DNA of 32,497 bases, from the sequence record SRR20825019_2041; one strand, written 5' to 3'. The notes under the pieces were generated by a model, which was not told where the DNA came from, did no database searches, and saw only the letters and a list, made by a program, of their open reading frames with translations. Made by a program: the position numbers and the translations under genes. Below, one piece after another: positions 1,565 through 27,789 of the stretch (position 1 is its first letter; each line of letters begins with the position of its first letter).

Positions 1565-1572
1565 GCAAAAAA

Positions 1573-9673: not shown

Positions 9674-9683
9674 CGGAGAACTC

Positions 9684-11680: not shown

Positions 11681-11715
11681 GAATAACTCCCCTTGTATCA
11701 CGTGGACGATTATAT

Positions 11716-11953: not shown

Positions 11954-12577
11954 TTGACTGAAACCGCATCAACCGCTTTTGACCCGCCAATTGTACCAAC
12001 CGCATCCGCAGAAAGTCTGGGAAGCCGCCTTCGCAAGAAACGGAAACAGGCAAAGCTGACCTTGAAGAAACTCGGGGACTTGTCCGATATTCCCGTTTCC
12101 ACATTGTCAAAGGTAGAAAACGGCTTAATGTCGCTGAACATCCAAAAACTAATGAAAGTGTGCAATGCCCTTGGGCTCGATGTCATGCAACTTGTCACAC
12201 CATCCGAGGCGTCGCTCCAAAGCGTGCCAGTGGTCACCGGGCGCCGAAGCATCACCAAAAAGGGAGAGGCACATGTGGTTGAGACCAAACAAACGATATA
12301 TGAGCACCATGCCAGCGACTTTCGCAATCGAAAACTGGCACCTAGCATCATGACTGTTCAAGCAGGGTCCGAGCCAGAACTGATTAGACACCAAGGCGAG
12401 GAATATATTTACGTACTAGAGGGCATTATTGAGGTCTTAACTGAGTTTTATGAGCCTACCGTTCTGGAGACAGGTGAGAGCATATATATCGACTCAACAA
12501 TGGGTCATAATGTGCGCGCCATTGGCGGAAAATCCGCTCGTATCCTAAACGTCATGACCAACATAGCAACAAGTTAA
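11954..12577 (+). CDS. XRE-family HTH transcriptional regulator with C-terminal cupin domain
   Basis: LGSRLRKKRK..LTLKKLG..IPVSTLSKVENG HTH; cupin HQGEEYIYVLEG..GESIYIDSTMGH. TTG start. Confidence 0.92.
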   Translation: MTETASTAFDPPIVPTASAESLGSRLRKKRKQAKLTLKKLGDLSDIPVSTLSKVENGLMSLNIQKLMKVCNALGLDVMQLVTPSEASLQSVPVVTGRRSITKKGEAHVVETKQTIYEHHASDFRNRKLAPSIMTVQAGSEPELIRHQGEEYIYVLEGIIEVLTEFYEPTVLETGESIYIDSTMGHNVRAIGGKSARILNVMTNIATS

Positions 12578-12591
12578 GCCCCCCTACAATC

Positions 12592-13866
12592 CTATGGCCG
12601 CCATGCTCTGAGTGGGCTTATCTTCTCAGAGATCTTGTCGGTTTGCTTCCCGGTCATTAACTGCATCAAGAGCCGTGCTGATCCCGCAGCCATGGTCCAT
12701 CCAAACGGACCGTGTCCTGTATTCAAAAACAGTCCCTCAATAGGTGTCTCACCAACATATGGCTTACCGTCAGCGCTTGCGGGCCGGAAGCCACACCAAT
12801 TCCCACGCTCTCTTCCCAGCAGAGTTTTTGAAGCCTCGGGAAAAACTGCCGACAGAAGCTGCTGCAAATTCAGTAGCCGCGCTTTTGTTAGCCTGTCATC
12901 AAAACCTGTGAACTCAGCCGTACCCGCGACCCTGAGCCGAGATCCAAGTGGCGTGATAGCTGCATGTAGATCGTCATCAACGATCGGAATTTGCGGAATG
13001 CAATCTGATGCAATATCTTTAGAATCAAACGTAATAGAATACCCCTTCACGGGTCTTACTGGCAAACCTGACCATAAGGGCGCCAAGAGGTTTCTTGTCC
13101 AAGCTCCAGCACTTAACACAACGCTATCCACTGCCAATGTTTCTTCTGCCGTTATAATCCCTTCAATTCGCTGTTTGGAAACAACCAGAGACTGCACCGT
13201 CTGTCCGCATTTCAGCGTGCCACCCTGTTCCACAAACTTGGCAGCTAAACCTTTCGTAAAAGCAGCCGCATCACCTGACATATCATTAGGGAAATAGAGC
13301 GCTCCCGCTAAATCCCCTGCAATTGGCGTCAGAGATGGTTCCTTTTGAACTAGCTCATCCTTTGTCAGCATGCAGGTCGCAACACCAAGGTCGGCGACAC
13401 GATCCATTTTTTTTAAGCCACTCTGTAACGCGGTTTCATTCCGGTAAATTTTCAAGACACCTTTTTCATTTTTGTCAAAAGCAAGCCTCTCAACTTTTGC
13501 GATGTCCTGAATAGCCTCAATACTAAGGAGCGACAGCTCAGTGTTGGTTCGCAGGGCTTCATTAAAAAAGACATCTTGTGAATAGTGCAAAAACTGAATT
13601 CCCCAACCGAATATGGATGGCAGAGCTTTTGCCCTCAAGAGCATGGGCGCATCTGAACGACCCAGATATCGTAGCAAATCACGCCACACTCCAGGAGAGT
13701 TCCAAGGATCAGACATACTCGGCGTTAGAAGGCCGCCATTCGCGAAACTGGTTGCGAGACCTACATCTGCATCTGCCTCTATAAGCGTGACGTCGTGCCC
13801 GGCATTTAACACCTCATACGCAGTGGTCACACCAATGACCCCACCGCCAACTACTGCTACTTTCAT
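12592..13866 (-). CDS. dadA: D-amino acid dehydrogenase (FAD-dependent, DadA family)
   Basis: VVGGGVIGVTTAY FAD motif, ATSFANGG, PVKGYSIT, LRVAGTAEF, WCGFRPASADGKPYVG, LNTGHGPFGWTMAAGSA. Confidence 0.88.
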   Translation of the reverse strand: MKVAVVGGGVIGVTTAYEVLNAGHDVTLIEADADVGLATSFANGGLLTPSMSDPWNSPGVWRDLLRYLGRSDAPMLLRAKALPSIFGWGIQFLHYSQDVFFNEALRTNTELSLLSIEAIQDIAKVERLAFDKNEKGVLKIYRNETALQSGLKKMDRVADLGVATCMLTKDELVQKEPSLTPIAGDLAGALYFPNDMSGDAAAFTKGLAAKFVEQGGTLKCGQTVQSLVVSKQRIEGIITAEETLAVDSVVLSAGAWTRNLLAPLWSGLPVRPVKGYSITFDSKDIASDCIPQIPIVDDDLHAAITPLGSRLRVAGTAEFTGFDDRLTKARLLNLQQLLSAVFPEASKTLLGRERGNWCGFRPASADGKPYVGETPIEGLFLNTGHGPFGWTMAAGSARLLMQLMTGKQTDKISEKISPLRAWRP

Positions 13867-13930
13867 GTTCTAGTCCGCATTCATTTTTAATTACGATTTA
13901 ACTCAATCTAGAATTTTCACAATTTTTCTG

Positions 13931-13970
13931 CAATTGAAATAATTATCATATGTGAAAATTATTTCAATTG
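13931..13970. promoter_or_regulatory. 40-bp palindromic operator in the dadA / M81-operon divergent promoter region
   Basis: CAATTGAAATAATT-ATCATATGTGAA-AATTATTTCAATTG has perfect 14-bp arms. Its core is TTATCA-TATG-TGAAAA (13943-13958). Confidence 0.65.
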
Positions 13971-14094
13971 TGCTAGGGTCTACAACTTCGACAGGGAAGT
14001 AAGCGGCTTTGCCTCTATAACTTTTTGAAAAATAACAAGTTTCAAAAATTATGCCGATGCAGAGGTATAAATATTTCAAGGGAGACGATATTCC

Positions 14095-15555
14095 ATGCGT
14101 TGTTTTGTTGCTTTTTTTGCGCATGAATCAAACAGCTTTTCGCCCATTCTGACAGACTTAAGCAGTTTTGAAGAAATTGGACTATATAGACCATCAATGG
14201 GTGACCCCAAGGAGCATCTAGCTGCTCTTAAAGGTGCTGTAGATTTTTATAATGAGGCGCAGCAACGAGGGCATACTGCCATTGTCGGAACCTGTGCACT
14301 TGCGCAGCCTAGCGCTCCATGCAATCGCAAAGATTATGAGTATCTAAGAGACACAATTTTAGATGAGTTGAAAGCAGCCGGTCCTGTGGACCTGATCGTT
14401 ATGATGATGCACGGAGCAATGATGGCAGAAGGCTATGATGACTGTGAAGGTGATATTCTGAAACATATCCGCTCAATCGTCGGCTCAGATGTTCCTATTG
14501 GAGTACTTCTTGACCTCCACTGCAATATTACAGAGGCCATGCTGGAAAATTCTACAGCCCTTATCCCCTGCAAAGAATATCCGCATACCGATTTTGCTGA
14601 TCGGGCTCATGAACTCTACAATCTCATTGAAGCTGCAGCAAAAGGTCAGGTGAAACCCGTTACCAGCTTCTTTAAAATTCCCACGCTGGGGCTGTTTCAC
14701 ACAACCCGCCCCCCCATGAGAGGGTTTGTTGATGCCATGATGGCTGCGGAACAGGAACAAGATGTTCTGGCGGTTAGTCTGGCACACGGATTTCCTTGGG
14801 CCGATTTTAAAGACACCGGGGCCTCCATGATGGTTGTCACTGATAACAACAAAGCCAAGGGTGACACACTCGCTGAAAAATTCGGACGAGAATTCTTTGC
14901 GTTCCGCGAACAAGCACTAACAAAAACACTCAGCCCACAAGGCTTAGTCGAAGTACTAAAAACAGCTAAAGAAGGTACTATTATAGCCGCTGATATGGCT
15001 GACAACCCCGGGGGTGGCGCCGGTTCTGATTCCACGTTCATTCTCGAAGCTCTACTAGAATGCGGTATGCAAGATGCCCTCATCGGCCTGTTCTGGGACC
15101 CTGCTGGTGTAACGCAGGCATTTTCAGCGGGCGTAGGCGCACAAATCAACATGCGGATAGGCGGCAGATTTGCGCCTTTTTCCGGAAACCCTCTGGACCT
15201 CGATGTTACAGTAAAAGAGCTCAGAGAGGATGCCTTCCAGCCTCATGTTTCTGACGGCACCCGCTGCCGCCTTGGCAGAACAGCTATTGTTGAGACACAG
15301 GGTATTGAAATTGTCCTGAATGAAATTCGCCAGCAACCTTTCAGGCCAGAGGCATTTTTATCGGCAGGCACTGATCCATGGTCAAAGCGTCTGGTAGTAG
15401 TAAAATCATCCTTCCATTTCCATGCTGGCTTTGCGGACAAAGCAGCCGAAGTGCTATTTGTCGACTCCCCAGGTACTCTGAACGAAGACCCAACAATACG
15501 GCCTTATAAGCATATTTCGCGCCCCATCTGGCCGCTTGACTCTGTGGAGCTATAA
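14095..15555 (+). CDS. M81-family metallopeptidase (MlrC-like)
   Basis: HESNSFSP, MHGAM, LDLHCN, KEYPHTD, GFPWAD, ADMADNPGGGAGSD, VVKSSFHF..F. GGAG RBS, no signal peptide. Confidence 0.9.
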   Translation: MRCFVAFFAHESNSFSPILTDLSSFEEIGLYRPSMGDPKEHLAALKGAVDFYNEAQQRGHTAIVGTCALAQPSAPCNRKDYEYLRDTILDELKAAGPVDLIVMMMHGAMMAEGYDDCEGDILKHIRSIVGSDVPIGVLLDLHCNITEAMLENSTALIPCKEYPHTDFADRAHELYNLIEAAAKGQVKPVTSFFKIPTLGLFHTTRPPMRGFVDAMMAAEQEQDVLAVSLAHGFPWADFKDTGASMMVVTDNNKAKGDTLAEKFGREFFAFREQALTKTLSPQGLVEVLKTAKEGTIIAADMADNPGGGAGSDSTFILEALLECGMQDALIGLFWDPAGVTQAFSAGVGAQINMRIGGRFAPFSGNPLDLDVTVKELREDAFQPHVSDGTRCRLGRTAIVETQGIEIVLNEIRQQPFRPEAFLSAGTDPWSKRLVVVKSSFHFHAGFADKAAEVLFVDSPGTLNEDPTIRPYKHISRPIWPLDSVEL

Positions 15556-15558
15556 GCC

Positions 15559-17826
15559 GTGGCGCGTTCTTATATCAAAGGCCCAATTCTCACGGTATTC
15601 TTTCTTGTAATTATGCTTTGGAGCATGCGCATCCTCACAGAAGGACCGCCTCTTAAACCAGCCACCACGCCTATGAATGAGTTTTCTGCTGAGCGCGCAT
15701 TCTCAGGCCTGTCTGCACTGCTGGAAGGGATAACTGCACATCCAGCAGGCAGTGACGCCAACAAATTGCTGCGATCAAGACTGGTCAGTACGCTAGAACA
15801 CCTAGGCTTTACCCCAGAAGTTCAAACTGACTTCCAGTGCTCCACTCTCGCACCGGGCTGCTCTTACCTTGAGAATGTGATTGTAGTCCTACCTGGCACC
15901 AACTCCGAGAAACCTGCCCTTATGGCGATGGCGCACTATGACAGCGCACCTGCCGCTGGCGGCGCTGCAGATGACGGAGCCGGCGTTGCCACCCTTCTCG
16001 AAGTTATTAATAACCTTAGAGAATCTGATCCGCTTAAAAATGATGTCATATTCCTCTTCTCCGATGCAGAAGAAAGTGGCCTTCGTGGGGCTATGGCCTT
16101 TAACCAAAAACACCCCTTAATGGAACGTGTTGGGATGATCCTGAATATGGAGGCACGCGGTGTTGCCGGTCCCAGCGTCATGTTTGAAACTGGCCCCAAT
16201 AATTTCACACAAGTTAAGGGCTTCGCAAGTGAAACGCCGCGACCAGTTGGCACAAGCCTAATTGTAGAAGTGTATAAACGTATGCCCAATGGTACTGACC
16301 TGATGGTATTCGGCGAGCGAGGTCTGCCAGCTCTCAATTTTGCTTTTTCTCGCGGTGTTTCACTTTACCACTCACCGCTTGACACTATTGCTCATCTGAG
16401 CAAATCCAGCCTTCAGCATCATGGCGATAATATGCTCGCTGCTATTCGCTACTTTGGAGATCAGGACCTCAGCACCCTCCAGACCGATGAGGATGCAACC
16501 TATATTGATGTTTTTGGCCTCTTTGTGCTCATGTGGCCTGCATCGCTAAATATCTGGCTTGTGTGCATTGCGGCTGCTGGGCTTGTCGTAATGGCGATTA
16601 ATGTAAAATCCTCTTGGAAGAAAACGGCATGGGCATTGCTCTCTGTTGTTTTAACTATTGTCGCGCTCGTCATCGCAGGTTGGTTACTTGCATTTCCGCT
16701 CGGCAATTGGGGTGACCTACACCCTCTGGATCATCCATACCCATGGCCCGGTCGGATTGCACTGATTCTGGCATCCCTGCTAATCCCAGCCCTGAGTATC
16801 AGACTGTTTGCCAAGCACCTCAATACTTCAAGCCTGTTTCAAGTGGTTTGGTGGCTATTTGCTATCATAGCCATCGCCCTTAGCCTGACAGTTACGGGTG
16901 CCTCATATATCTTTCTACTCCCTGTACTGGTTGCATCCATAACGGCAGTAGTTTGTCATTTTGGGAAACCGCAATATGCACTGAAAATTGCCTCTTATGT
17001 GGGCGCAGGCCTCGCTGCATACATGGCGTTTTATCACTTTATCCTGCTCGAAGTGGTCTTCAATTTCCACCTCAGCCACCTTAAAATGATCGCATTGCTT
17101 CCCCTCACACTCGCGGTGCTTCCGTTGTTCCTGGAGTGGCGAAAGTCAGACGATGACAAAGGTTTACTTATTGCCTTTATATCCACCACAATTGTTGCGA
17201 CAGCCATTGGCGCCAGCGTTCCAGCCTTCACGCCAGAGCGCCCTCGCAGCACCAACATCGTTTACCGCGCAGATGTAACAACAGAAACCTACAACTGGCA
17301 GCTGTTTACGTTCGGCCCGGAAGACAAGGCATATCTATCGACCTCAGGCTTTAGCATTGAAAAACAACATCTGGAAAACATGGGCTATATGGCCGATACC
17401 GGCTACCTGAAACCCGCTAAAAACCTTGGTATCGAAGCACCGACACTCACCGTGAATAGTGATATAACGGAAGGTGAGATACGAGTGATTGATGTAACTG
17501 CGCACTATAGCACTCAGGCCATGTTGTCGGGTATTGGCTTCCACCCGGATACGCAACTCATATCCCTGGAAGCTGATAGCCAACTTGTCCTTAAGGATCC
17601 GGCCCCTGCAGCCCATGCGCTCTTTATGGGCAGCGACCCTGCAGGCTTGCACCTTCGCATTACAGCGGTTGCAGGATCGCCGGTTGAAGTCCGGATTTTT
17701 GACATGACTCCCCTCTCTCTTGAAGGAGAAGCAAAACTTTTGGCTGATCTTCGCCCTGAAGACACAGCCCCTATGCATTTTGGCGATCACAGTGTGGTCA
17801 GCCGCACCATTCGTATTGGAGAGTGA
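15559..17826 (+). CDS. M28-family metallopeptidase with multi-pass membrane domain (ERMP1-like architecture)
   Basis: N-terminal TM, FSAERA, AHYDS, GAADDGAG, DAEESGL, NMEARG, TD, YHSPLD, then about 8 hydrophobic segments and a soluble C-terminal domain. Confidence 0.88.
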   Translation: MARSYIKGPILTVFFLVIMLWSMRILTEGPPLKPATTPMNEFSAERAFSGLSALLEGITAHPAGSDANKLLRSRLVSTLEHLGFTPEVQTDFQCSTLAPGCSYLENVIVVLPGTNSEKPALMAMAHYDSAPAAGGAADDGAGVATLLEVINNLRESDPLKNDVIFLFSDAEESGLRGAMAFNQKHPLMERVGMILNMEARGVAGPSVMFETGPNNFTQVKGFASETPRPVGTSLIVEVYKRMPNGTDLMVFGERGLPALNFAFSRGVSLYHSPLDTIAHLSKSSLQHHGDNMLAAIRYFGDQDLSTLQTDEDATYIDVFGLFVLMWPASLNIWLVCIAAAGLVVMAINVKSSWKKTAWALLSVVLTIVALVIAGWLLAFPLGNWGDLHPLDHPYPWPGRIALILASLLIPALSIRLFAKHLNTSSLFQVVWWLFAIIAIALSLTVTGASYIFLLPVLVASITAVVCHFGKPQYALKIASYVGAGLAAYMAFYHFILLEVVFNFHLSHLKMIALLPLTLAVLPLFLEWRKSDDDKGLLIAFISTTIVATAIGASVPAFTPERPRSTNIVYRADVTTETYNWQLFTFGPEDKAYLSTSGFSIEKQHLENMGYMADTGYLKPAKNLGIEAPTLTVNSDITEGEIRVIDVTAHYSTQAMLSGIGFHPDTQLISLEADSQLVLKDPAPAAHALFMGSDPAGLHLRITAVAGSPVEVRIFDMTPLSLEGEAKLLADLRPEDTAPMHFGDHSVVSRTIRIGE

Positions 17827-17830
17827 CTCG

Positions 17831-18910
17831 ATGTCTGAGCTAGATGATATGTACACCCTGAGCACAGGGATTGTTTCCCGGTCTATTTCCTTTGAAAATC
17901 CAACTGGCGCAGTTGGTAGCGGGGCCAGAGCTGCTAGCCCACTGGGTATTGGCCGCAAGGGCGACCCCGCAAGGCATTTGCATCCCGGCGAGACCATTAC
18001 TTTAGCAGACATTGAGGGCATCGGTATCATACGCCATATCTGGCTAACAACGCACCCGAAGCTTGCCCTTTTACGCGGCATTATTCTTCGGTTTTACTGG
18101 GATGATCAGGAACATCCATCCATTGAAGCTCCCATCTGTGACTTCTTTGGGTTTGCCCACGGTCAGACACCACCATTTGAAACTGCCGTGCACTCTGTCG
18201 GTGAAAAAAATGGCATGAACATTTGGCTTCAAATGCCATTCCTGAAGCGGGCAAAAATAGAAATCATTAATGAAACAGAGGTTCGCATGCCTCTGTTTTA
18301 CCAGATTGATTACACCCTTGGGGACAAACTGGACAAAAACACTGGACGCCTCCATGTGTCCTTCCGCCGCGAAAACCCAACTACCAAAACCAAAGACCTC
18401 GAAATTCTGAACCGCAGCGGTAATCCCGGCAGATATCTGGGTGCTGTTTTCGGTGTGCGCCCCCTTGGCCCGCTATGGTGGGGCGAAGGTGAGTTTAAAG
18501 CCTATATTGACGGCGACACAGACTTCCCAACCCTCGCGGGCACCGGTGCTGAAGATTATGTGGGCCTTTCATGGGGCATCCAGCAAAATGCCTTCCGTTA
18601 CCTGGGTGCCAACTGGCGTGAAAAAGACCATGTTTCAGACACTGGCCTGGTGTCCATGTACCGCTGGCATATCCCGGACCCGATCGTCTGGGAGACCGAG
18701 ATTCGTGCCACTATCCAACAAATCGGGCACAACCCAACCGGCAATGCTCGTATCATCGATGACTATAAAAAAGAACTGTATGAGCGGGAAGACGACTGGT
18801 CAGTCACCGCCTTCTGGTATGAACCAGTCCCGAGCCAACCACTCCCCCCTATTCCGTCTGTTGAAGAGCGCATGGCAGATTTGCCGGAGCCAACCTTGGA
18901 GCTTGTATAA
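17831..18910 (+). CDS. Glycoside hydrolase family 172 (DUF2961) protein
   Basis: SRSISFENPTG, GIIRHIWLT, YWDD..PSIEAP..DFFG, YQIDY, WWGEGE, GTGAEDY, YRWHIPDPI, AFWY. Start moved to ATG 17831, just after the M28 stop (GGAG upstream); no signal peptide. Confidence 0.88.
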   Translation: MSELDDMYTLSTGIVSRSISFENPTGAVGSGARAASPLGIGRKGDPARHLHPGETITLADIEGIGIIRHIWLTTHPKLALLRGIILRFYWDDQEHPSIEAPICDFFGFAHGQTPPFETAVHSVGEKNGMNIWLQMPFLKRAKIEIINETEVRMPLFYQIDYTLGDKLDKNTGRLHVSFRRENPTTKTKDLEILNRSGNPGRYLGAVFGVRPLGPLWWGEGEFKAYIDGDTDFPTLAGTGAEDYVGLSWGIQQNAFRYLGANWREKDHVSDTGLVSMYRWHIPDPIVWETEIRATIQQIGHNPTGNARIIDDYKKELYEREDDWSVTAFWYEPVPSQPLPPIPSVEERMADLPEPTLELV

Positions 18911-18912
18911 TA

Positions 18913-20424
18913 ATGTCTGATACAATTCATATCTATTGGCCCGGGGATTACCGGAAAGTCCCAAATGATATGGCAATGCCGATGGTCGAAGCAACCACGG
19001 TACAGCTTGAAAAAGCCCTCAACAAACTTGGGCGTAAGCATAAGCGGACAGGTGGCATTCTCAGTAAACCAAATGAAGCTATCTCAACCTTGGGTCCAAT
19101 TGATGACCCGCTAATTGGCGTCTACAGTCACTGGGTTTACGGCCCTCACACCACAGATGGGGTGGTTGGAAAAGATAGCCCCCTTCTTCTCGCCAGCAAC
19201 TTTGATGGCACATGGCCCGGTCTTGTCGGCCTTCTGAACACAGCTGCTTGCCTTGAAATGGTGGCCCGTAAATCCAGCCGCATCTGGACTGATGCGAAGG
19301 ACTGGACATCTGACGAAACCTTCATGGATAGCTTGAAAGAATGGTGTGACACAGGTGGTATCCGCTATGACACGAGTGCTCTAACATATAATGCTCCAGT
19401 TTCTGCTCCTGCCGCGGCGACTGCAGATAAAGTACTTGCCGAGTTTAAAGCACGCCGCCCCTTGGCTCTTATGCTTGGCGACACGTCCATGGGCATGACC
19501 AATGGGTATTTTGGGTCCCGCTTCCTCTCGAAAATAGGGTTTAGCGAGCATAAAGTGGACCAAGCTTGGATCATTGAACGCGGCAAATCCATTAGGCAAA
19601 ATCGAATTGAAGAGGCTTATAAATTTGTCTGTGATAAGGGAGTCACTTTCCATTATGGCGGTGATTTTGGGCCTGAGGCTACAAAAGAGCAGCTCCGCGA
19701 TTATTTTGTAGTGCTTGATCTGCTCGCCGAATTTGAAGCCGACTGTGTGGGCTGGCAGTATCAGCTTGGCCTGATTGGATCGCGAGCCCCCTCTGACTTT
19801 GCGGAAGGCCTTCTTAACTCTACATGCCGCCCGGAAAGCAATGGCGATACCTATACAGACGCCACCGAAGCAGACCAAGGAAACCTTATTCCACAAGAGA
19901 TGATGAAGCGTCTTTTAAAGGTAAAAGGGCTGCACCAAGCAGTGTTCTTCCATGATATTCGTTGGGGCGCCGAGCACGATGGACGCTTCCTTTGGGTTCT
20001 TTTAAACTCAGGGTCCAGTGGCGCTTATGCTTTCAATCAGGACCCTGACACATTGAAAGGCGTACACAGCTACCGCCAACCTGCCGCTTATTTTCCCATT
20101 CCGGGCGGTACCTTTGCGGGGGAAAGCAAGGCTGGCGATATTACTTGGGCGCGCTCCTATGTTCAGGACGGTGATCTATGGATGGACCTTGGCTGCGGAG
20201 AAGTTGTGGAGCTTCCAGCAAGCGTTCGGGACAGCTGGTGGAACGGAACCACTCGCGAATGGCCATTTATGGCAGCTGACCTTGGTATAGGCCGAGATAC
20301 CCTGATGGCCCATTATATGAGCAACCATATTGCTGTTGTGTATGGCGATATCTTTGAAGAAATGCTCGCCCTCTCAAAAGTCATGGGCTTCAAAATCCGC
20401 ATTATGAAAGATTTGAGAGCCTAA
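18913..20424 (+). CDS. L-fucose/D-arabinose isomerase-like protein
   Basis: WPGLVGLL, GWQYQ, and ATEAD / FHDIRW / SNHI motifs that parallel the catalytic Glu, Asp and metal-binding His of FucI. Sits directly upstream of a sugar kinase. Confidence 0.75.
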   Translation: MSDTIHIYWPGDYRKVPNDMAMPMVEATTVQLEKALNKLGRKHKRTGGILSKPNEAISTLGPIDDPLIGVYSHWVYGPHTTDGVVGKDSPLLLASNFDGTWPGLVGLLNTAACLEMVARKSSRIWTDAKDWTSDETFMDSLKEWCDTGGIRYDTSALTYNAPVSAPAAATADKVLAEFKARRPLALMLGDTSMGMTNGYFGSRFLSKIGFSEHKVDQAWIIERGKSIRQNRIEEAYKFVCDKGVTFHYGGDFGPEATKEQLRDYFVVLDLLAEFEADCVGWQYQLGLIGSRAPSDFAEGLLNSTCRPESNGDTYTDATEADQGNLIPQEMMKRLLKVKGLHQAVFFHDIRWGAEHDGRFLWVLLNSGSSGAYAFNQDPDTLKGVHSYRQPAAYFPIPGGTFAGESKAGDITWARSYVQDGDLWMDLGCGEVVELPASVRDSWWNGTTREWPFMAADLGIGRDTLMAHYMSNHIAVVYGDIFEEMLALSKVMGFKIRIMKDLRA

Positions 20425-20426
20425 CC

Positions 20427-21932
20427 ATGAGCAAGAGATACGTTATCGGAATTGACGGAGGCACAGAAAGCCTGCGCGCGGGTGTGTTTGACCTCAGTGG
20501 GAACCCTATTAGCTTTGCAGCGACACAGTACTCGACACAGTTCCCAGCATCTGGATGGGCCGAGCAAAACCCAGATGACTGGTGGCGTGCCCTGGTCAGG
20601 TCGGTAAAACAAGCCGTTCAGAATGCAAGCATCAAGAGCTCAGATATCCTGGGCCTTGCTGTCGACACTACCTGCTGCTCGGTGTTAATGCTTGACAAAA
20701 ATGGCGCCCCCATCCGCCCCGCCCTTATATGGATGGATGTTCGCTCTGATGCAGAAGCTGCTAAAATTCTGGCGGCAGGTGACATCGCTCTTTCAGTGAA
20801 TAGTAATGGCAATGGTCCTGTGTCAGCGGAGTGGATGCTGCCGAAGGCATTATGGCTTAAAACTAATGAGCCCAGAAACTGGGACAAAGCCCAAACGGTT
20901 TGCGAATATCAGGACTATATTAATTATAGGCTCACAGGGCGCATGTGCAGCAGCGTGAACAATGTCGGGGTACGCTGGCACCACCAAGGAAAAGAAGGAC
21001 GCCCTCTTGGACTACTGCATGCAGCAGGCCTGTCAGACCTTGCGGACAAATGGCCAGAAGACACGCTTGAACTCGGGGAAGTAGTGAGCCATTTGCATCC
21101 GCAGGTCGCGGAAGAACTGGGCTTATCGGCCGACATTCCTGTTGCGCAAGGAGGCGCTGATGCATTCATCGGTATGATTGGCGTTGGCGTAACCAAACCG
21201 GGTGCTCTCGCCTTCATCACTGGGTCTTCACACCTTCATTTGGGCCTGAGTGACAAACCCTTTCACGCACCCGGAGTGTGGGGGACATATCTGGATGCCC
21301 TTATCCCGGGCTTGCACGTGGTTGAGGGCGGTCAAACCTCTACAGGCTCTGTTGTTAACTGGTTTAAACGCACCCTTGCAGCAAACAACAGTTACAGAGA
21401 GCTGGACGCAGAAGCAATGCTATTGCCGTCGGGATCAGACGGCGTCATAGCGCTGGATCATTTTCAAGGGAATCGCACGCCTTATACTGACGCTTTATCT
21501 CGCGGTGCTTTCATTGGCCTTTCACTGGGTCATAGCCGCGCCCACATGCACCGCGCTCTGATGGAAAGCGTGGCGATGGGGTCCCGCTTGATTCTAGAGA
21601 CCATGCAAAAGGGAGGCTTTGAGCCTCATGATATTGTGCTCTCTGGAGGTGTGACCAATTCCCCACTCTGGTTGCAAATTCATGCGGATATCATCGGAAA
21701 ACCGCTTCATCTTACAGAGGTTGCCAATGCGCCAGCACTCGGCTGCGCTATTCTTGCATCTGTCGGGGCAGGAGTTTATTCAGATATCGAAGAAGCTGCA
21801 ATGGCCATGGTGCGCCGAACACGTACAATTAAACCGTCAAAATATAGCTCTGAGTATGACGACCCATATGCTACTTACAAGTCGCTTTATGGTGCCTTGA
21901 AATCTGTCCGCCAGCCAGGACGCAACCGTTGA
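20427..21932 (+). CDS. FGGY-family carbohydrate kinase (ribulokinase-like)
   Basis: IGIDGGTESLR, WAEQNPDDWW, ALIWMDVR, GGADA, EGGQTSTG, DHFQGNRTP, SGG..SPLWLQIHADI, ALGCAILA. Confidence 0.9.
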   Translation: MSKRYVIGIDGGTESLRAGVFDLSGNPISFAATQYSTQFPASGWAEQNPDDWWRALVRSVKQAVQNASIKSSDILGLAVDTTCCSVLMLDKNGAPIRPALIWMDVRSDAEAAKILAAGDIALSVNSNGNGPVSAEWMLPKALWLKTNEPRNWDKAQTVCEYQDYINYRLTGRMCSSVNNVGVRWHHQGKEGRPLGLLHAAGLSDLADKWPEDTLELGEVVSHLHPQVAEELGLSADIPVAQGGADAFIGMIGVGVTKPGALAFITGSSHLHLGLSDKPFHAPGVWGTYLDALIPGLHVVEGGQTSTGSVVNWFKRTLAANNSYRELDAEAMLLPSGSDGVIALDHFQGNRTPYTDALSRGAFIGLSLGHSRAHMHRALMESVAMGSRLILETMQKGGFEPHDIVLSGGVTNSPLWLQIHADIIGKPLHLTEVANAPALGCAILASVGAGVYSDIEEAAMAMVRRTRTIKPSKYSSEYDDPYATYKSLYGALKSVRQPGRNR

Positions 21933-22873
21933 GCACACCCTCAAAAGAAGCTCGCGCTTTTCTTGAAAGTTTACCCCCTTTTGAGGAAAGACCCTTTCCA
22001 CCAGAAATCGGTGACTTTTCCGCTTGGGCTGCCTGGCAAGCCCACATTGAGAAAGTCGCCGGTGAGCGCTCAGAAAAAACCATACAAGACTATTACGATC
22101 AGATTAAACCTGTAGCTTTCAAGGAGGCGGGCGGGCTGGAAATAGCAGAAATCACCCCCACTCAAAAAGATAAAAGTGTGCCGCCTCTCATCTTTTTGCA
22201 CGGCGGGGCATACGTGGGGTTTTCAGCCCGTTCCAGTCTGTTCGCGACCATACCGCTTGCTATCAGGCTAGGCACCACTGTTACCAGTGTTTGTTACCCG
22301 CTGGCGCCTCAGTCCAGTTTCCAGAGCGTTGTACCTGCAGCAGCTAAGACAATTATAAGCCTTATGAAACCAGGCTTTGCCTTGATGGGCGATTCAGCGG
22401 GTGGTGGGCTTGCTATCTCTGTAACGCAGTATATGAAGCGGATGAAGGAACGCCTTCCCGCCAGTTTGGTGCTGTCATCGCCGTGGGTAGACCTGACAGC
22501 GAGTGACAGGATAGATGACCCAATACTGCGCTTCAAAAACGACTTGGAGGTCTGCGCGAAAGCCTATGCCGCTGACGATGCCAAAAACCCTATGGCTTCT
22601 CCGCTTTATGACACCTTTACCGGCGATTTTCCACGCGTTCTAACACAAATGGGGGAGCGAGAAATCTTTGTCTCTTCCGTTGAAGCCTTTCATACCAAAC
22701 TTACTAGTGCCGGCATTGTAAACGTCTTGAAAGTTTATGACGGCATGTACCACTCGTTCCCTGTCCTCACACCCGAAGTACCTGAAAGTGTGGTCGCCTT
22801 TAGACAGCTCAAAAGCTTCCTGAAAAACAATCATATGAACATTGGACCAAATAATGACCCACAGCAGAATTGA
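21929..22873 (+). CDS. Alpha/beta hydrolase, hormone-sensitive lipase (HSL) family esterase
   Basis: FLHGGAY oxyanion loop, YPLAP, GDSAGG nucleophile, SPWVDL, ASPL, GMYHSF. TTG start overlaps the kinase stop. Confidence 0.88.
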   Translation: MSTPSKEARAFLESLPPFEERPFPPEIGDFSAWAAWQAHIEKVAGERSEKTIQDYYDQIKPVAFKEAGGLEIAEITPTQKDKSVPPLIFLHGGAYVGFSARSSLFATIPLAIRLGTTVTSVCYPLAPQSSFQSVVPAAAKTIISLMKPGFALMGDSAGGGLAISVTQYMKRMKERLPASLVLSSPWVDLTASDRIDDPILRFKNDLEVCAKAYAADDAKNPMASPLYDTFTGDFPRVLTQMGEREIFVSSVEAFHTKLTSAGIVNVLKVYDGMYHSFPVLTPEVPESVVAFRQLKSFLKNNHMNIGPNNDPQQN

Positions 22874-23345
22874 CAAAAAGCTGAAAACCCTGAACCTCCA
22901 GCTTGCTGAGGCGATGCAACTACCCGAAGGACTGGTGCTGCCCTTTGTTGGCGCAAAAATACTAGGCAAGAGGGTCGTAATTTCTGGTCATCTGCCCCTG
23001 AATACTGACGGCAGTATCCATGAAATACGTGGCAAAGTGGGTGATGAAGTTTCCATTGAGGAAGCATACCTGTCGGCCAAGCTTGCAACCCTTGCCATGC
23101 TCGGCACCTTAAAGCGTACAATTGGAAGCCTCGACAGAGTTGAAAACTGGGTCCGTATTCTGGGTATGGTGAATGTAACGCCCGGCTGCACTCAGACGGC
23201 CCCAGTTATCAATGGCTGTTCGGACCTCCTGATTGAACTGTTTGGGCCTGAAGTGGGCAGTCATACACGCTCCGCAGTCGGCTTTGCAGAACTTCCGTTT
23301 GACTGCCCGGTTGAAATTGAGGGCGAGGTTGAAATTACCCTCTAG
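22854..23345 (+). CDS. RidA/YjgF-family protein (Rid1-like imine hydrolase)
   Basis: ISGHLP, GKVG..VSIEEA, GSLDRV, VINGCSDLLIELFG, HTRSAVG (conserved Arg), LPFDCPVEIE. Confidence 0.9.
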   Translation: MTHSRIDKKLKTLNLQLAEAMQLPEGLVLPFVGAKILGKRVVISGHLPLNTDGSIHEIRGKVGDEVSIEEAYLSAKLATLAMLGTLKRTIGSLDRVENWVRILGMVNVTPGCTQTAPVINGCSDLLIELFGPEVGSHTRSAVGFAELPFDCPVEIEGEVEITL

Positions 23346-25237
23346 GCCATTTGCCACCCCAGGACATTATATGGCAGTAGCAGCAGGGCGCTGATCGCTG
23401 CCATAACCATGAAAAGCCCTAGGACAACCCGTGCTTTTACTGTGTCGGCTTTCAACGCACGCCAAAACGACCAAAGGGCTCCAATAATAAGCACATGATA
23501 CGCCAGAATAAAAAGCCCGATACGCCCGACATGTCCTGCATAAAATGGCGTAATCAGGCTCCCTCCTTCAGATAACCCCACAGTTGCAGTCAAAACCATC
23601 AACAAGCTTGCCGCACCAATCATGATGGCTGGCATTATATCCTTGCCAGCCCCCAATAAAAAAGGAGCAGCCAACCCAAAAACAGATAGCAGGATCACAA
23701 TATGCAAAATAATCGCATGCACTTTACTGCTAGCTATCACCGGTATTTTGGTGAATGTATAGATGCCAAGATCATGACTGATCGTCATAACTCCAGTTCT
23801 GCTATTCTCTGCAAACACCATCATGGGACGCCCCGGTGCATCCAACATAAAGCGGCCCTCACCCACAGGCACAAACGGCCCACCACCATTGAGATAAAGC
23901 CCGCCTTCTCCCACTGTTACATCGAGGATGCCTGCCCCGAAATATACGAGCGATGCTAATGCCTCCACACTGTGGTACGGGCGCCTATCGGCTTGATATG
24001 TCCCAGCGTAAGCCTCCACGGGTATCTCTATGGCGGGCAATATAGGGCGCTTGTCCCCGAGAAACTGCTGCAAAAAGTTACTGTGCAGCGACGATGCAGA
24101 TAAAAGTGCTGGTGATGGCTTCGGCCCCAGGGATGGAACAACTGCACTAAGAAACCGGTCCACGACCCCATGCGGTTCTGCCTCGCTGAACAGGGTAACA
24201 TAAAAACCAAGATGCTCCTCAGGCACCATAGTCATCCACGTATGAAAGCCCGCCCAGTTACCGCCGTGGGAGACAACCTTTTTGCCTGCCCATTTATCAA
24301 CGAAAAACACCATACCCAGGCCCCCAATTTCTGGGTGGTTTGCCGCTAAACGTACGAATAATTTTTCTTGCAATTGTTGGCCGTGCTCTGGCCAACCTTC
24401 CATATGCGCGTTCATATAAAGCGCCATGTCATGTGCGGTTGCTACAATAGATCCCGTCTGAGCCACAGCTGGGTTAATAGCGGTAAATGGAACAGGTCCT
24501 GTCATCCCACCCGCCGAGACAATTCCAGGGACCGCAAGCCCCTCAGGCTCTTGTATGGTAACGACAAGTTCAGTTTCGCTCATACCAAGTGGTTCAAAGA
24601 TGCGGGCTTCCATAACGTCATTAATTGGTTGCCTTGTGATATCTTCAATAACTAATCCGAGTGTAGCGACACCAAAGTTAGAATAGACCACTTTTTCACC
24701 TACAGGGCGCGTAAAGTCAGGCCTCAAAGTATCATAGAGCTCGGCATCAACGGGTATTGAGACAGGCCTGTCACTTCCTATGAAAAAGAACCTATCTTCA
24801 AATCCAGCTGTGTGGGTTAGCAGATGTTTAAGCGTAATGGCCACACCGCCGTTATCAGGAAGTTGATAGCGTTTCAGATATTTGTTGGCCGGGTCATCAA
24901 GGGACTGTATTTTCCCTTCCTGCATAAGCTGGGCAATGATGGTTGCCGTAAAAGTTTTTGTGGTGGAACCAATACGCGACCGGGTTACTGCCGGATCTGC
25001 AGCTTCTCCTGTCAGAACATTCCCCTGACCATACCCCTTTTCCAGTACAATCCGCCCGTCCTTGACCACACTGACAACCGCTCCAGTTACACGGCCTGCC
25101 TTGACAAGACTGCCTACGGCTCCATCTGCCCATTTTTCCATCTCATTTTGCTGCGCCTCCACAGCGTGGACAGATGCCCCAGCGACAACGAAACATATGA
25201 AACCTGCAAATAATTTCTGGATGTTTTTCACAGACAT
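23342..25237 (-). CDS. Serine hydrolase of the beta-lactamase/D-peptidase fold (S12-like) with signal peptide and C-terminal TM helices
   Basis: IGSTTK (SxxK), LLTHTAG, YSN, SHGG. N-terminal signal ending SVHA and about 4 C-terminal hydrophobic segments. Confidence 0.88.
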   Translation of the reverse strand: MSVKNIQKLFAGFICFVVAGASVHAVEAQQNEMEKWADGAVGSLVKAGRVTGAVVSVVKDGRIVLEKGYGQGNVLTGEAADPAVTRSRIGSTTKTFTATIIAQLMQEGKIQSLDDPANKYLKRYQLPDNGGVAITLKHLLTHTAGFEDRFFFIGSDRPVSIPVDAELYDTLRPDFTRPVGEKVVYSNFGVATLGLVIEDITRQPINDVMEARIFEPLGMSETELVVTIQEPEGLAVPGIVSAGGMTGPVPFTAINPAVAQTGSIVATAHDMALYMNAHMEGWPEHGQQLQEKLFVRLAANHPEIGGLGMVFFVDKWAGKKVVSHGGNWAGFHTWMTMVPEEHLGFYVTLFSEAEPHGVVDRFLSAVVPSLGPKPSPALLSASSLHSNFLQQFLGDKRPILPAIEIPVEAYAGTYQADRRPYHSVEALASLVYFGAGILDVTVGEGGLYLNGGGPFVPVGEGRFMLDAPGRPMMVFAENSRTGVMTISHDLGIYTFTKIPVIASSKVHAIILHIVILLSVFGLAAPFLLGAGKDIMPAIMIGAASLLMVLTATVGLSEGGSLITPFYAGHVGRIGLFILAYHVLIIGALWSFWRALKADTVKARVVLGLFMVMAAISALLLLPYNVLGWQMA

Positions 25238-25264
25238 TATTTTCCCCTCTGTCATTCTTAACGA

Positions 25265-25300
25265 AGAACGCCTGCGACACTCTCATGCCACAGGCGTTCT
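25265..25300 (-). terminator. Intergenic hairpin between the TonB-dependent receptor and the serine hydrolase
   Basis: AGAACGCCTG (25265-25274) and CAGGCGTTCT (25291-25300) form a perfect 10-bp stem, extendable by G-U pairs on the minus transcript. The U-tail is weak. Confidence 0.55.
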
Positions 25301-25336
25301 ACTCAATTCCAGTGATAGCTCATCAGCTATTCTACC

Positions 25337-27592
25337 TTAGAAATCTACCTTGAAGACGGCACCTACAGTCCGTGGCTGCAAGACGTTTGCTGTTGCACGT
25401 GTAAAGCCAACAAGTGGACGTGCACTACCGCCGGTAAAGGCATATTTATCGAAGATATTGCGAGCGTAAATAGACGCTGTCACACTGCCAATTCTTATAC
25501 CGAAGCTCACATTAGCCGTCACATAGTCTTCGATTGGGAAGTTAGCTATCAGCGGTGTAATTGTCGTGCCATCTTCGCCTACGCCGCCCTCATAACCAGT
25601 ATCTTTTGAGCCGACATACCTCACACCTGCATTGACAAAGCCATCAACTTTGTCCGTAAGCGGGAAATCATATGTACCCCGAATAGAGGCCGTCCACTCA
25701 GGGAGCAAATGCATATTTTCACCAGCAAGTGCACCAAAGCCTGCGGTCTCGTCATCATCAAGCGTGCTATGCGAATAGGACAGGCTGGAGATGAGCTGGA
25801 AGCCATCAGAAACCTGCACACTCAAGCTGCCTTCAAAACCGTACGCTGTTACGTCACTATTCGCGTTACCGCCTGTCGATGCACCGTTCACGAACGTCAC
25901 CACTTGCAGGTTTGACCAGTCGATGTACCAGAGGGCCATATCATAGTTTACCTTACTGTCCGCAAGTGCCCCTTTGGCGCCCACCTCATAGCTCCAGAGT
26001 GTGTCTGTCGCGATAATAGCAGGAGCAGCGTTATTACCGCTGGCATCCAAAAGGGGCAGGTTTGCATTTTCCGGACGATACCCGCTTGCCACCCGTGCAT
26101 ACAGAGACAGGTCAGGATTTGGACGATAGCGTGCTGTGAAGCTATAGGTGTCAACTGTGTCGCTGCTGGATGTTTCCGGCAGGTTAGCCACAATAAGACC
26201 TGGACCATCAATTAATGAAACCGCTGAATCGATCCATGCTAAGCGCGCGCCGACGGTCACATCAAAATTATCATTTAGATAATATGTACCGTTTCCAAAG
26301 AGCGCGAACTCTTCAACACCGCTGCCGAGGTCTACGTCGAGAGCAAGGAACCCGCTTGGGAAGCCTTCAAGGCGCTGAATATTACTACTATCTTCGTCAG
26401 AATAGATACCACCAATCGACCACTCAAACGACTGGTTCTCTTTGGATGTTAAGCGTATTTCCTGAACAAAGCGCTCTGTCTTAATAAGACCTGTAAAGGG
26501 TGCTGATGTCACGGAGCCCGGCGCACCACCAGAAAGTAACTCAATAAGAGACCCGAACGTGGCAACCAGATCGGCAGCGTTCGAGTTTACACGGTCCTGA
26601 TAGCTGGTAGATGATGTGAAATCTCCCCACCCAAAATCATAAATTAAGGTACCGGCATACAGAGTAAATTCATCATTGAGGTCATTTTCTCCCTCGTCCG
26701 TGCTATATGGCCCATTCACCGGCTCATATGGAGGGCCTTGAATAACAACCGTATTAGCTCCTGATGTTTCAACATCTGTGTGCACGAACAAAAAGTTCCC
26801 TGACAAGTTTTCTGTCGGGTTGGCTGTCATCTTCGCGTAAATGCCATAGCGGTTAAAACTGTCAACATCCACCGCTGCACCAGTTGGTGATGCCGCAATC
26901 CGGTCAATGAACCCATCGAAGTGTTCGTGATAACCGGCAACGCTGATGCCCAGTTTATCTTTAATAATCGGGCTGCTAATGCGACCACTGAAATTGGTGT
27001 TAAACCCCCCTTCTTTCGTTGCTGACAAGTCTGCTTTTACATTACCTTCGAAGCCATTACTTGAAGGGTCTTTAGTGATATAACGAACCACACCGCCCAT
27101 GGACGAACTGCCATAAAGAGTTCCTTGTGGCCCCTTAATCAACTCCACCCGTTCCACATCACCAGACAGCGCATCAAAATGTAATGATGGCCCAGCCGCA
27201 AACGAATTGCTTGATCCTAGTGGCACATCATCCAGATAGATGCCTACAGTTGAGGCGCGGCCTGCCTGTGACACCCCCCGCATGGTGATAGTATTGCCCG
27301 TAGGCAAACCACCGCCTGCATAATGAACACCCGGTGCGAAATCAATAACATCACGCAACTTGGTAAGCCCATTAACACTAAACTCTTCCGGGTTAATAGC
27401 GGTTACCGACAGCGCCGTATCCTGCAAAGTCACAGCCCGGCGGGACGCAGTAATTGTTATTTCCTCAAATCCACTAAATTCTTCACTCTCTTGCGCAGGT
27501 GCATTCTGTGCATAGGCAACCTGCGATCCTAGGGTTGCTAGTGCTATAAAAGAGGTACCTGCCAAAAATTGACGATATTTTGCTTGTGCCAT
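25337..27592 (-). CDS. TonB-dependent outer membrane receptor
   Basis: Signal peptide ending AYA-Q, TonB box EEITITASRR, plug motif RVELIKGPQGTLYG..SMGGVVRYIT, NIFDK, terminal Phe. Start set at ATG 27592 after GGGAGGA. Confidence 0.95.
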   Translation of the reverse strand: MAQAKYRQFLAGTSFIALATLGSQVAYAQNAPAQESEEFSGFEEITITASRRAVTLQDTALSVTAINPEEFSVNGLTKLRDVIDFAPGVHYAGGGLPTGNTITMRGVSQAGRASTVGIYLDDVPLGSSNSFAAGPSLHFDALSGDVERVELIKGPQGTLYGSSSMGGVVRYITKDPSSNGFEGNVKADLSATKEGGFNTNFSGRISSPIIKDKLGISVAGYHEHFDGFIDRIAASPTGAAVDVDSFNRYGIYAKMTANPTENLSGNFLFVHTDVETSGANTVVIQGPPYEPVNGPYSTDEGENDLNDEFTLYAGTLIYDFGWGDFTSSTSYQDRVNSNAADLVATFGSLIELLSGGAPGSVTSAPFTGLIKTERFVQEIRLTSKENQSFEWSIGGIYSDEDSSNIQRLEGFPSGFLALDVDLGSGVEEFALFGNGTYYLNDNFDVTVGARLAWIDSAVSLIDGPGLIVANLPETSSSDTVDTYSFTARYRPNPDLSLYARVASGYRPENANLPLLDASGNNAAPAIIATDTLWSYEVGAKGALADSKVNYDMALWYIDWSNLQVVTFVNGASTGGNANSDVTAYGFEGSLSVQVSDGFQLISSLSYSHSTLDDDETAGFGALAGENMHLLPEWTASIRGTYDFPLTDKVDGFVNAGVRYVGSKDTGYEGGVGEDGTTITPLIANFPIEDYVTANVSFGIRIGSVTASIYARNIFDKYAFTGGSARPLVGFTRATANVLQPRTVGAVFKVDF

Positions 27593-27632
27593 TAATTCCT
27601 CCCACACAAGTGCATTATGAATTGTCATAGCG

Positions 27633-27678
27633 ACAAAATTTTCAATAATGAAAATATTTTCATAAATTGAAATTTTGT
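27633..27678. promoter_or_regulatory. Tandem palindromic operator upstream of the TonB-dependent receptor
   Basis: Perfect TTTTCA-ATAA-TGAAAA (27639-27654) abuts a second degenerate copy. Together they form a ~46-bp near-palindrome centred on ATGAAAATATTTTCAT (27648-27663). Confidence 0.6.
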
Positions 27679-27789
27679 GCAAGATTAAAGTAGGAGCGAT
27701 TACAAAGCGGCGATGATCAGAAGCCATAAGTTGTAATTGTCTCTACTTTACAATTTTCTGATTGAAAAATTAGATCGAGGGGATGTGGT

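Follow-up and report, generated by a model that had tools for sequence, protein, structure and literature searches.

Our analysis of a stretch of DNA of 32,497 nucleotides from sequence record SRR20825019_2041, which as a whole we call the window, suggests that three adjacent genes at 17831-21932 encode a route from D-arabinose to D-ribulose-5-phosphate. The genes code for a glycoside hydrolase of family 172 (GH172), an isomerase distantly related to L-fucose isomerase (FucI) and a sugar kinase of the FGGY family, and of the readings considered a D-arabinose route agrees best with the comparative evidence; judging from sequence, we hold it with moderate confidence. In this route the GH172 would cut a terminal alpha-D-arabinofuranose (Araf) off a small imported glycoside in the cytoplasm, the isomerase would convert D-arabinose to D-ribulose by the Mn-type ene-diol aldose-ketose chemistry of its FucI relatives, and the kinase would phosphorylate D-ribulose to D-ribulose-5-phosphate, which would need neither aldolase nor epimerase to enter the pentose phosphate pathway. 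The trio would be co-transcribed with the genes of two peptidases, a cytoplasmic M81 and a membrane-bound M28 enzyme, and of an esterase, joined in relatives by those of a tripartite ATP-independent periplasmic (TRAP) transporter. A first-pass annotation had proposed the same sugar route; the neighbourhoods of related isomerases support it, but the trio is not a unit by itself, its kinase is of an unassigned FGGY subfamily, fructofuranosides are a further possible substrate of the GH172, and the pathway has been proposed before.

The comparative evidence comes from what adjoins the isomerase family elsewhere. A search of genome contigs with the isomerase gave 151 relatives, and neighbours were counted within 6 kb of the isomerase gene in the best 80 of these 151 loci, which span more than 10 phyla (six-frame open reading frames (ORFs), single-query phmmer, E <1e-8). 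The commonest neighbour is a D-ribulokinase-like protein of the TIGR01315 type, resembling the kinase of locus L036 and present in 43 of the 80 loci; all 21 of the 43 that were scored pass the NCBIfam cut-off of 408.7 bits, with 513-693 bits. The ATPase, permease and binding protein of a CUT2 ATP-binding cassette (ABC) importer occur at 30, 29 and 28 loci respectively, a lyase of the dihydrodipicolinate synthase (DHDPS) family at seven, an RbsD/FucU mutarotase at three and a class II aldolase at none, while the window-type module of GH172, M28 peptidase and window-type kinase occurs at eight. TIGR01315 is the D-ribulokinase family of RbtK; it includes RblK, and DarK of the E. coli D-arabinose route (10.1101/2025.02.06.636802). 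An aldose isomerase that has a D-ribulokinase and an importer of the monosaccharide ABC type as neighbours, but never an aldolase, suggests D-arabinose as the sugar; D-ribose is a less likely substrate of the isomerase family.

The isomerase itself stands apart from its characterised relatives. A canonical FucI carries the Pfam domains Fucose_iso_N1, N2 and C in about 590 amino acids; the window protein has 503 amino acids and Fucose_iso_C alone (52.9 bits, E 4e-14), the two N-terminal domains being undetected. It has no match in NCBIfam and, by phmmer, none in the PDB. A profile built from 16 family members does match the D-arabinose isomerase 3A9R (3.8e-4) and FucI 1FUI (5.9e-3). When an AlphaFold model of moderate quality (pLDDT 70.2, pTM 0.77) is compared with solved structures by Foldseek, L-fucose isomerases come first (3e-15 to 7e-14, 17-18% identity, probability 1.00, TM score about 0.5) and L-arabinose isomerases second, from 4e-13 and likewise with probability 1.00, the nearest unrelated match lying at 7e-3. 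As modelled, the protein has the fold of the FucI/AraA superfamily, and a Foldseek search with a moderate model does not separate FucI-like from AraA-like function. In HMMER alignments Q282, E319 and H472, invariant in the 16-sequence family alignment, align to FucI Gln300, assigned to the substrate, Glu337, assigned to catalysis and the metal, and His528, assigned to the metal (PMC6894278). The equally invariant D348 is a candidate for the equivalent of FucI Asp361, a position that the alignments obtained do not span. That FucI enzymes interconvert D-arabinose and D-ribulose, as the first reading of this DNA had stated, is borne out by the literature (PMC6894278), and the same conversion is predicted from sequence for the window isomerase.

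Members of the isomerase family, at about 505 amino acids, keep 60-88% identity across many phyla; the best 120 of 2297 family matches are 67-88% identical and come from Planctomycetota, Chloroflexi, Hydrogenedentota, Burkholderiales, Myxococcota and others. A library of representative sequences holds 988 relatives at E <=0.001, and clustering at 50% leaves essentially one full-length representative of the family; in the ESM Atlas, homologue P0037 finds only clusters named 'putative fucose isomerase'. Next to FucI and AraA the isomerase forms a third branch, which is uncharacterised; no publication describing its function was found in a literature search that most subscription journals lay outside. 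In the tree of the family, the clade of the window isomerase nests among clades linked to RbtK, at 60-78% identity.

This nesting among D-ribulokinase-linked clades is the reason to expect D-ribulose as the substrate of the window kinase. The protein has both FGGY domains (FGGY_N, 131.1 bits, 6.9e-38; FGGY_C, 142.5 bits, 1.9e-41; Pfam), and in a FastTree phylogeny computed without a XylB anchor it groups with AraB-like kinases and RbtK, apart from RhaB-like kinases and from the other FGGY protein of the genome. The genome holds two FGGY genes, the operon kinase and one other, and since there is only this one other, the operon kinase must serve the operon. From its context we predict that it is a pentulose kinase acting on D-ribulose. 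The window kinase itself lies outside TIGR01315.

The assignment of the first gene to GH172 is clear, with 231.1 bits on DUF2961 against a gathering cut-off of 27 (E 1.7e-68; Pfam). Its best solved relatives are ExoMA1 (8IC8, 2.4e-44) and alphaFFase1 (7V1V, 2.7e-41), together with BACUNI_00161 (4KQ7) and a Dysgonomonas enzyme (8AH3), and it is the only GH172 of the genome. E219 in the motif WWGEG, with E241 and D242 in GTGAEDY, aligns to E233, E254 and D255 of DgGH172c, where the catalytic residues are known from mutagenesis and all three are matched, and to the catalytic residues of alphaFFase1; a one-residue insertion makes the spacing of the catalytic glutamates 22, against 21 in alphaFFase1. 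The absence of a signal peptide, noted from the start, is confirmed: by hydropathy and by eye there is no hydrophobic N-terminal stretch, and residue 14 onward aligns from residue 13 of the cytoplasmic ExoMA1. We predict that the protein is an exo-alpha-D-arabinofuranosidase.

A route through D-ribulose-5-phosphate dispenses with the aldolase or 4-epimerase whose absence from the window had been remarked on, rightly: none of the 23 window ORFs scanned matches the class II aldolase/epimerase family PF00596. In the whole genome there is one such protein, 1.8 Mb away and of the PRK07044 type, which we considered and rejected both as AraD (53.6 against a cut-off of 251) and as FucA (46.6 against 264). 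By these scores the genome is without AraD or FucA.

Six genes on the + strand make up the unit, and the trio occupies its middle (Table 1). The gaps of 2 bp first noticed within the trio agree with the coordinates in the ORF list; those between the M81 and M28 genes and between the M28 and GH172 genes measure 3 and 4 bp, and the esterase gene shares 4 bp with the kinase gene at its stop. The GH172 start at ATG is preceded by a Shine-Dalgarno-like GGAGAG; a longer reading from a TTG at 17720 was rejected, as 107 nt of it would lie within the M28 gene, and in relative L002 such a start is impossible because the open frame begins right after the M28 stop. When 13400-23600 was scanned, the top sigma-70-like sites, which are consensus matches only, lay upstream of the M81 gene (13916-13943, with 10/12 positions; 13934-13962; 14025-14052), and no convincing terminator was found within the operon. 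The intergenic region before M81 is the likely promoter of all six genes. In two metatranscriptome runs (X17, X19) short contigs of at least 99% identity lie across all six genes at a depth of 2-4, for which DNA carry-over is a possible source; none of these contigs spans the junction of two genes with 31 letters to either side of it. The raw RNA-seq runs X21 and X22, in which the presence of the organism is not established, gave 0 reads. As for the notion of a self-sufficient trio, the three genes are not a stand-alone unit: they belong to a conserved operon that also encodes two peptidases and an esterase, with TRAP genes added in relatives.

Table 1. Features of the window, in order of position, with the evidence for each.
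Feature	Position	Strand	Evidence
QatD	4713-5456	-	PADLOC, 307 bits
QatC	5435-6787	-	PADLOC, 355 bits
QatB	6741-7532	-	PADLOC, 195 bits
QatA	7505-9352	-	PADLOC, 591 bits
D-amino-acid dehydrogenase-like (DadA-like) FAD enzyme, divergent from operon	12592-13866	-	Pfam DAO 5.1e-70
Intergenic, between DadA-like and M81 genes; candidate operon promoter	13867-14094	+	sigma-70-like matches
M81 (MlrC-like) metallopeptidase, operon gene 1	14095-15555	+	Pfam, PDB 7YLQ
Membrane M28 peptidase	15559-17826	+	Pfam Peptidase_M28 and hydropathy
GH172 (DUF2961) glycoside hydrolase, cytoplasmic	17831-18910	+	Pfam, PDB 8IC8/7V1V
Isomerase of 503 amino acids, uncharacterised branch of FucI/AraA superfamily	18913-20424	+	Fucose_iso_C, profile, Foldseek
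FGGY sugar kinase, subfamily without curated match	20427-21932	+	FGGY_N and FGGY_C
Carboxylesterase of hormone-sensitive lipase family (Abhydrolase_3), cytoplasmic, last operon gene	21929-22873	+	Pfam 5.2e-31
TRAP DctM	29506-30807	+	Pfam
TRAP DctP	30804-31823	+	Pfam
TRAP DctQ	31790-32308	+	Pfam

The window-type sequence of GH172, isomerase and kinase recurs in eight loci (L002-L009) of Pseudokordiimonas, Parvularculaceae, Marinicaulis, Hyphococcus and similar organisms, which among them hold five distinct isomerase sequences. The M28 gene lies immediately 5' of GH172 in all eight, and the esterase gene follows the kinase in 6/6 of the loci that extend that far. The full order M81-DctM-DctP-DctQ-M28-GH172-isomerase-kinase-esterase is kept in the six loci that are long enough (L002, L003, L005, L007, L008, L009; marine Alphaproteobacteria), where the TRAP homologues (DctM 551-666 bits, DctP 346-450 bits) sit between M81 and M28; in the window the TRAP genes lie instead 6.6 kb downstream of the esterase gene. 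Close orthologues of the M28 protein are absent from 400 sampled genomes of the class, 5/400 having remote matches of 27-38% identity, the best of them 38% over part of the protein. Within the genus of the window the region is accessory: the isomerase occurs in 0/24 other genomes, and for the 20 kb at 9500-29400 only short patches of DNA were matched in 31 other genomes. The operon DNA is near-identical (at least 0.95 of sampled words) in 16 public runs. They belong to 8 studies and include metagenomes of seawater, marine and biofilm origin, which indicates that the lineage bearing the operon is recurrent in marine samples.

Beyond the trio, the operon genes and their surroundings have a marked peptidase content. 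The M81 protein matches DUF1485/M81 (4.3e-78) and MlrC_C (5.6e-51) in Pfam and microcystinase C (7YLQ, 7.1e-95) in the PDB; by hydropathy and by eye it, the isomerase, the kinase and the esterase are, like the GH172, without signal peptide or transmembrane segments. The M28 protein has its Peptidase_M28 domain at residues 106-295 (1.8e-43) and shows one hydropathy peak at 5-23 and eight more between 329 and 554, so that it is predicted to consist of an N-terminal transmembrane anchor, the M28 domain, eight transmembrane helices and, at the C-terminus, a further domain of about 200 residues. The esterase falls below the NCBIfam cut-offs for hormone-sensitive lipase subfamilies, and its PDB relatives are generic metagenomic esterases (best 4Q3O, 8.3e-28). 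Among the TRAP proteins (DctM 1.7e-103, DctP 1.7e-37, DctQ 2.7e-19; Pfam), DctP has as its closest PDB structures 4NGU and 4N8G, which we take to be D-Ala-D-Ala complexes. The DadA-like protein scores 361.7 bits on PRK00711 D-amino acid dehydrogenase, just below the cut-off of 383; a weak DAO fragment occupies the corresponding position in L003, and the gene is a possible associate of the operon. The window also codes for an S15 peptidase. As a side observation, a gene at 23342-25255 (-) encodes a 637-residue beta-lactamase-fold protein (AmpH or D-aminopeptidase-like) with an N-terminal signal-like segment and four predicted C-terminal transmembrane helices; next come the genes of a TonB-dependent receptor (25337-27727) and of a TAP-like alpha/beta hydrolase (27790-29403).

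Several observations weigh against the D-arabinose reading. On NCBIfam models the window kinase scores best on PRK04123 ribulokinase (295 bits, cut-off 428), then on XylB (289, cut-off 380) and on TIGR01315 (252.7 in two stretches, cut-off 408.7), and reaches none of them; the kinases of module relatives L002 and L005 have 275.6 and 239.6 bits on TIGR01315 and likewise reach no curated cut-off. The window and module kinases are about equally near the ribulokinase and xylulokinase models. The nearest homologues of the window kinase beyond the module, at 50-57% identity in 3/400 genomes of the class (L087/G150, L088/G424, L089/G309), have as neighbours SorC regulators, a split transketolase, Dak1/Dak2, a 3-hydroxyisobutyrate-dehydrogenase-like gene and a CUT2 ABC importer, a context that is tetrulose- or apiose-like, not one of D-ribulose. 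(The FGGY subfamily of these three loci may act on tetruloses or branched pentuloses.) In the isomerase family at large, RhaB-like kinases of RhaB/FucK-like character adjoin the isomerase at six of the 80 loci, mostly in Planctomycetota, and AraB-type kinases at two (L014, L015). These counts rest on six-frame ORF calls made by rules of our own, and many of the loci are contigs of metagenome-assembled genomes that end prematurely.

The GH172 and its linkage to the isomerase add to these reservations. At the position where ExoMA1 has the bulky, Araf-restricting Asn253, the window enzyme has G249, the equivalent of Gly299 of alphaFFase1, and glycine stands there in 9/9 module GH172s (the window and its eight relatives, which contribute five distinct sequences besides that of the window). 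In alphaFFase1 this glycine makes room for the C1 hydroxymethyl of fructofuranose (Fruf), which Asn253 blocks (Shimokawa 2023, PMC10509167). Gly-type enzymes, namely alphaFFase1 and the highly similar DgGH172c, cleave alpha-D-Araf as well (PMC10115798, PMC10509167), and because they do, alpha-D-Araf activity is likely for the window enzyme; Gly249 would remove strict Araf specificity and leave Araf activity, with alpha-D-fructofuranosidase activity a further possibility. The linkage of GH172 to the isomerase is essentially that of one clade plus one further locus, L043 (Gemmatimonadota); that this second and separate case has an isomerase on a different branch of the tree counts in favour of the reading. 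No known source of D-arabinan is evident for this organism, and the GH183 model PF13810 has no match in the genome, although it is silent in all 14 control genomes too. Finally, the pathway has been proposed before: for a D-arabinan locus of Microbacterium, a cytoplasmic GH172 and a GH116 followed by an isomerase and a kinase were already suggested to yield D-ribulose-5-phosphate (Shimokawa 2023, PMC10509167). The L043 locus, which links GH172, isomerase and peptidase independently of the window clade, carries at 69-12501 a 401-residue GH172 (-), an ABC ATPase and permease and a 715-residue GH172, then a binding protein, the isomerase, an M19 dipeptidase and a GH3; the 715-residue GH172 has serine at the specificity position, neither glycine nor asparagine.

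How else could the trio be read? The glycine just discussed, and the nearly equal PDB matches to alphaFFase1 and ExoMA1, would suit an alpha-D-fructofuranosidase or other ketofuranosidase, with the isomerase and kinase processing another sugar, for example to D-xylulose-5-phosphate, which again calls for no aldolase; the kinase does score almost as highly on XylB as on ribulokinase, and XylB is the top model for the L002 kinase. We consider this improbable, given that Gly-type enzymes also cleave alpha-D-Araf, that free fructose requires neither an aldose isomerase nor an FGGY kinase, and that the usual partner of the isomerase family is a D-ribulokinase and not a xylulokinase. The two L-sugar readings we set lower still, because AraD and FucA are missing. 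An L-fucose or L-galactose isomerase of short form, with an L-fuculokinase and an aldolase encoded elsewhere or replaced, would agree with the closest solved folds, with the label 'fucose isomerase' in sequence sources and with the RhaB/FucK-like neighbours, mostly planctomycetal, described above. It is very unlikely: a FucA-type aldolase is found neither in the window nor in the genome nor within 6 kb at any of the 80 loci, the kinase has 122 bits on the fuculokinase model against a cut-off of 471, no fucosidase is present, and the literature covered reports no fucoside activity of characterised GH172s. Slimmer yet is the chance of an L-arabinose route in which the isomerase would make L-ribulose and the kinase would be an AraB analogue. 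Its best case is that the kinases of L014 and L015 stand above the PRK04123 cut-off of 428 (559 and 521 bits), that the same model is the best for the window kinase and that AraA shares the isomerase fold; yet there is no AraD 4-epimerase in the genome or at any of the 80 loci, and AraB of enterohaemorrhagic E. coli phosphorylates D-ribulose too (10.1101/2025.02.06.636802), so that an AraB-type neighbour is no proof of an L-sugar. In L014 (Henriciella, 6271-13735) the AraB-type gene lies upstream of the isomerase, and downstream of it we observed a diaminopropionate ammonia-lyase-like pyridoxal-phosphate enzyme (492 bits against 276), then a protein of beta-lactamase fold and an M81 peptidase.

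A different kind of alternative concerns the operon as a whole, which might serve two unrelated functions, with no substrate in common, from one promoter: uptake and hydrolysis of D-amino-acid peptides by M81, TRAP and M28, and a sugar route comprising GH172, isomerase, kinase and esterase. This is a possibility to be taken seriously, if still a doubtful one, and it need not conflict with D-arabinose as the sugar of the trio. Peptide-catabolic genes abound nearby (DadA-like, beta-lactamase-fold, TAP-like, S15), the structures closest to DctP are those taken above for D-Ala-D-Ala complexes, and most loci of the isomerase family are without peptidases; against this, the order from M81 through TRAP, M28 and the trio to the esterase is kept in six loci, and peptidases adjoin the isomerase in two arrangements besides that of the window, in L014 (M81 with a beta-lactamase-fold protein) and in L043 (M19 dipeptidase). 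A D-Araf glycopeptide or acylated glycoside that would account for all six genes and two functions under one promoter are equally possible.

What, then, would the D-arabinose route feed on? The imported substrate should be small, since the GH172 is a cytoplasmic protein and no polymer-degrading enzyme accompanies it, and a TRAP importer suggests that it bears a carboxylate. The natural substrate is probably a small carboxylate-bearing conjugate, a glycopeptide or an acylated glycoside, rather than D-arabinan polymer; here we infer the link between peptidases and sugar, the substrates throughout and the specificity of the kinase. In a wider and speculative form, to which we would give only a small chance, the operon and TRAP transporter would be a route for D-arabinofuranosylated peptides or acylated D-Araf conjugates from the envelopes of other bacteria, such as pilin-type O-D-Araf glycopeptides or cell-wall fragments, joining the hydrolysis of D-amino-acid peptides to D-arabinose catabolism, and the isomerase family would be the dedicated bacterial D-arabinose isomerase, which in other phyla would close a route for 3-deoxy-D-manno-octulosonic acid (KDO) running from TRAP uptake through a DHDPS-type KDO aldolase to the isomerase and D-ribulokinase.

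This last suggestion arises from the loci with a lyase. KDO aldolase (EC 4.1.2.23) splits KDO into D-arabinose and pyruvate. A DHDPS-family lyase gene directly adjoins the isomerase gene in L016, L018, L022, L027 and L037 (at about 6900-11200 in each, as in L023), and of the lyase loci L016, L018, L023, L027 and L037 carry the TIGR01315 D-ribulokinase but L022 does not; TRAP genes accompany the lyase in L018, L022 and L023; L027 and L037 have genes of NagA/NagB/SIS/BadF type. The lyases, of the DHDPS/NanA family, score below all curated cut-offs. These loci could be clusters for the catabolism of KDO or another ulosonic acid, with the lyase as a candidate KDO aldolase. We found no gene assignment for this enzyme in the literature covered, though one may exist. 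We also note in L027, at 9528-11093 between the isomerase and the D-ribulokinase, and at the same place in L037, a 521-residue protein without a Pfam match, with 322 bits on 'Hef-associated nuclease' against a cut-off of 840.

Comparison with known systems helps to place the window. The locus of Microbacterium arabinogalactanolyticum similarly has a cytoplasmic, signal-less GH172 exo-alpha-D-arabinofuranosidase adjoining a putative isomerase and kinase, and has in addition GH183 endo-arabinanases, a GH116 beta-D-arabinofuranosidase and an ABC oligosaccharide importer (PMC10509167), where the window has peptidases, an esterase and TRAP genes, and Gly249 in place of Asn253; of the traits of a D-arabinan locus, the window has the GH172 with an adjoining isomerase and kinase. 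In the D-arabinose route of E. coli B and Klebsiella, FucI likewise acts as the isomerase and DarK, of TIGR01315, then yields D-ribulose-5-phosphate (10.1101/2025.02.06.636802), whereas the window isomerase is a separate 503-residue branch and its kinase lies outside TIGR01315. With canonical FucI and the D-arabinose isomerase of Aeribacillus pallidus (1FUI, 3A9R, 6K1F) the window isomerase shares the fold and the equivalents of Q300, E337 and H528, but it is about 90 residues shorter and nearly as close to AraA (4e-13). AlphaFFase1, the difructose dianhydride I synthase/hydrolase of Bifidobacterium dentium (7V1V), resembles the window GH172 in family, specificity glycine and catalytic glutamates; the window, however, has no fructan or difructose dianhydride genes nearby, and its aldose isomerase and pentulose-type kinase would be superfluous for fructose. 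The Rbl system of Citrobacter rodentium, like many loci of the isomerase family, combines a CUT2 ABC importer with a TIGR01315 D-ribulokinase, but it imports the ketose itself and has a KpsF-like phosphosugar isomerase that growth does not require (10.1101/2025.02.06.636802), while in the loci of the isomerase family a FucI-like aldose isomerase is always present. What is new here is the identity of the isomerase as a widespread and unassigned branch, the strength of its link to D-ribulokinases, the setting of peptidases, esterase and TRAP, and the possible link to KDO.

Elsewhere in the window, 5 kb upstream of the operon, PADLOC finds a complete QatABCD anti-phage system at 4713-9352 (-). 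An 893-residue protein at 1823-4504 (+) joins an N-terminal PHP domain to an ABC/AAA_15/AAA_21-type ATPase; PADLOC weakly matches its C-terminal part, and no more than that, to Ppl (95 bits), and with AriA-like matches besides it is possibly a second defence gene; a small ORF of 89 amino acids at 1557-1826 overlaps its start. The DNA at about 9866-9990 recurs at 90-98% identity several times on a contig of the same genus (G018:C11), with weak copies in G000 and other genomes, and is probably a small repeat element adjoining the unannotated ORF at 9484-9978.

More generally, if our assignment is true, it would give a function to a compact and highly conserved isomerase family that is now labelled only 'fucose isomerase-like', and that is found also in Planctomycetota, Desulfomonilaceae, Myxococcota, Acidobacteriota, Alphaproteobacteria and others. 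The function earlier proposed for this divergent subfamily is partly supported. The link to peptidases suggests a class of glycopeptide substrates not described before. The KDO route, if true, would be a second, independent source of D-arabinose, with the GH172 opening a third, and a candidate gene for KDO aldolase that can be put to the test is provided by the DHDPS-family lyase found next to the isomerase. As a sugar, D-arabinose is a marker of bacterial envelopes: D-arabinan and the D-Araf glycans of pilins contain it, and aldol cleavage of KDO yields it. Given this, the widespread pairing of a predicted D-arabinose isomerase with a D-ribulokinase would point to routine recycling of bacterial necromass.

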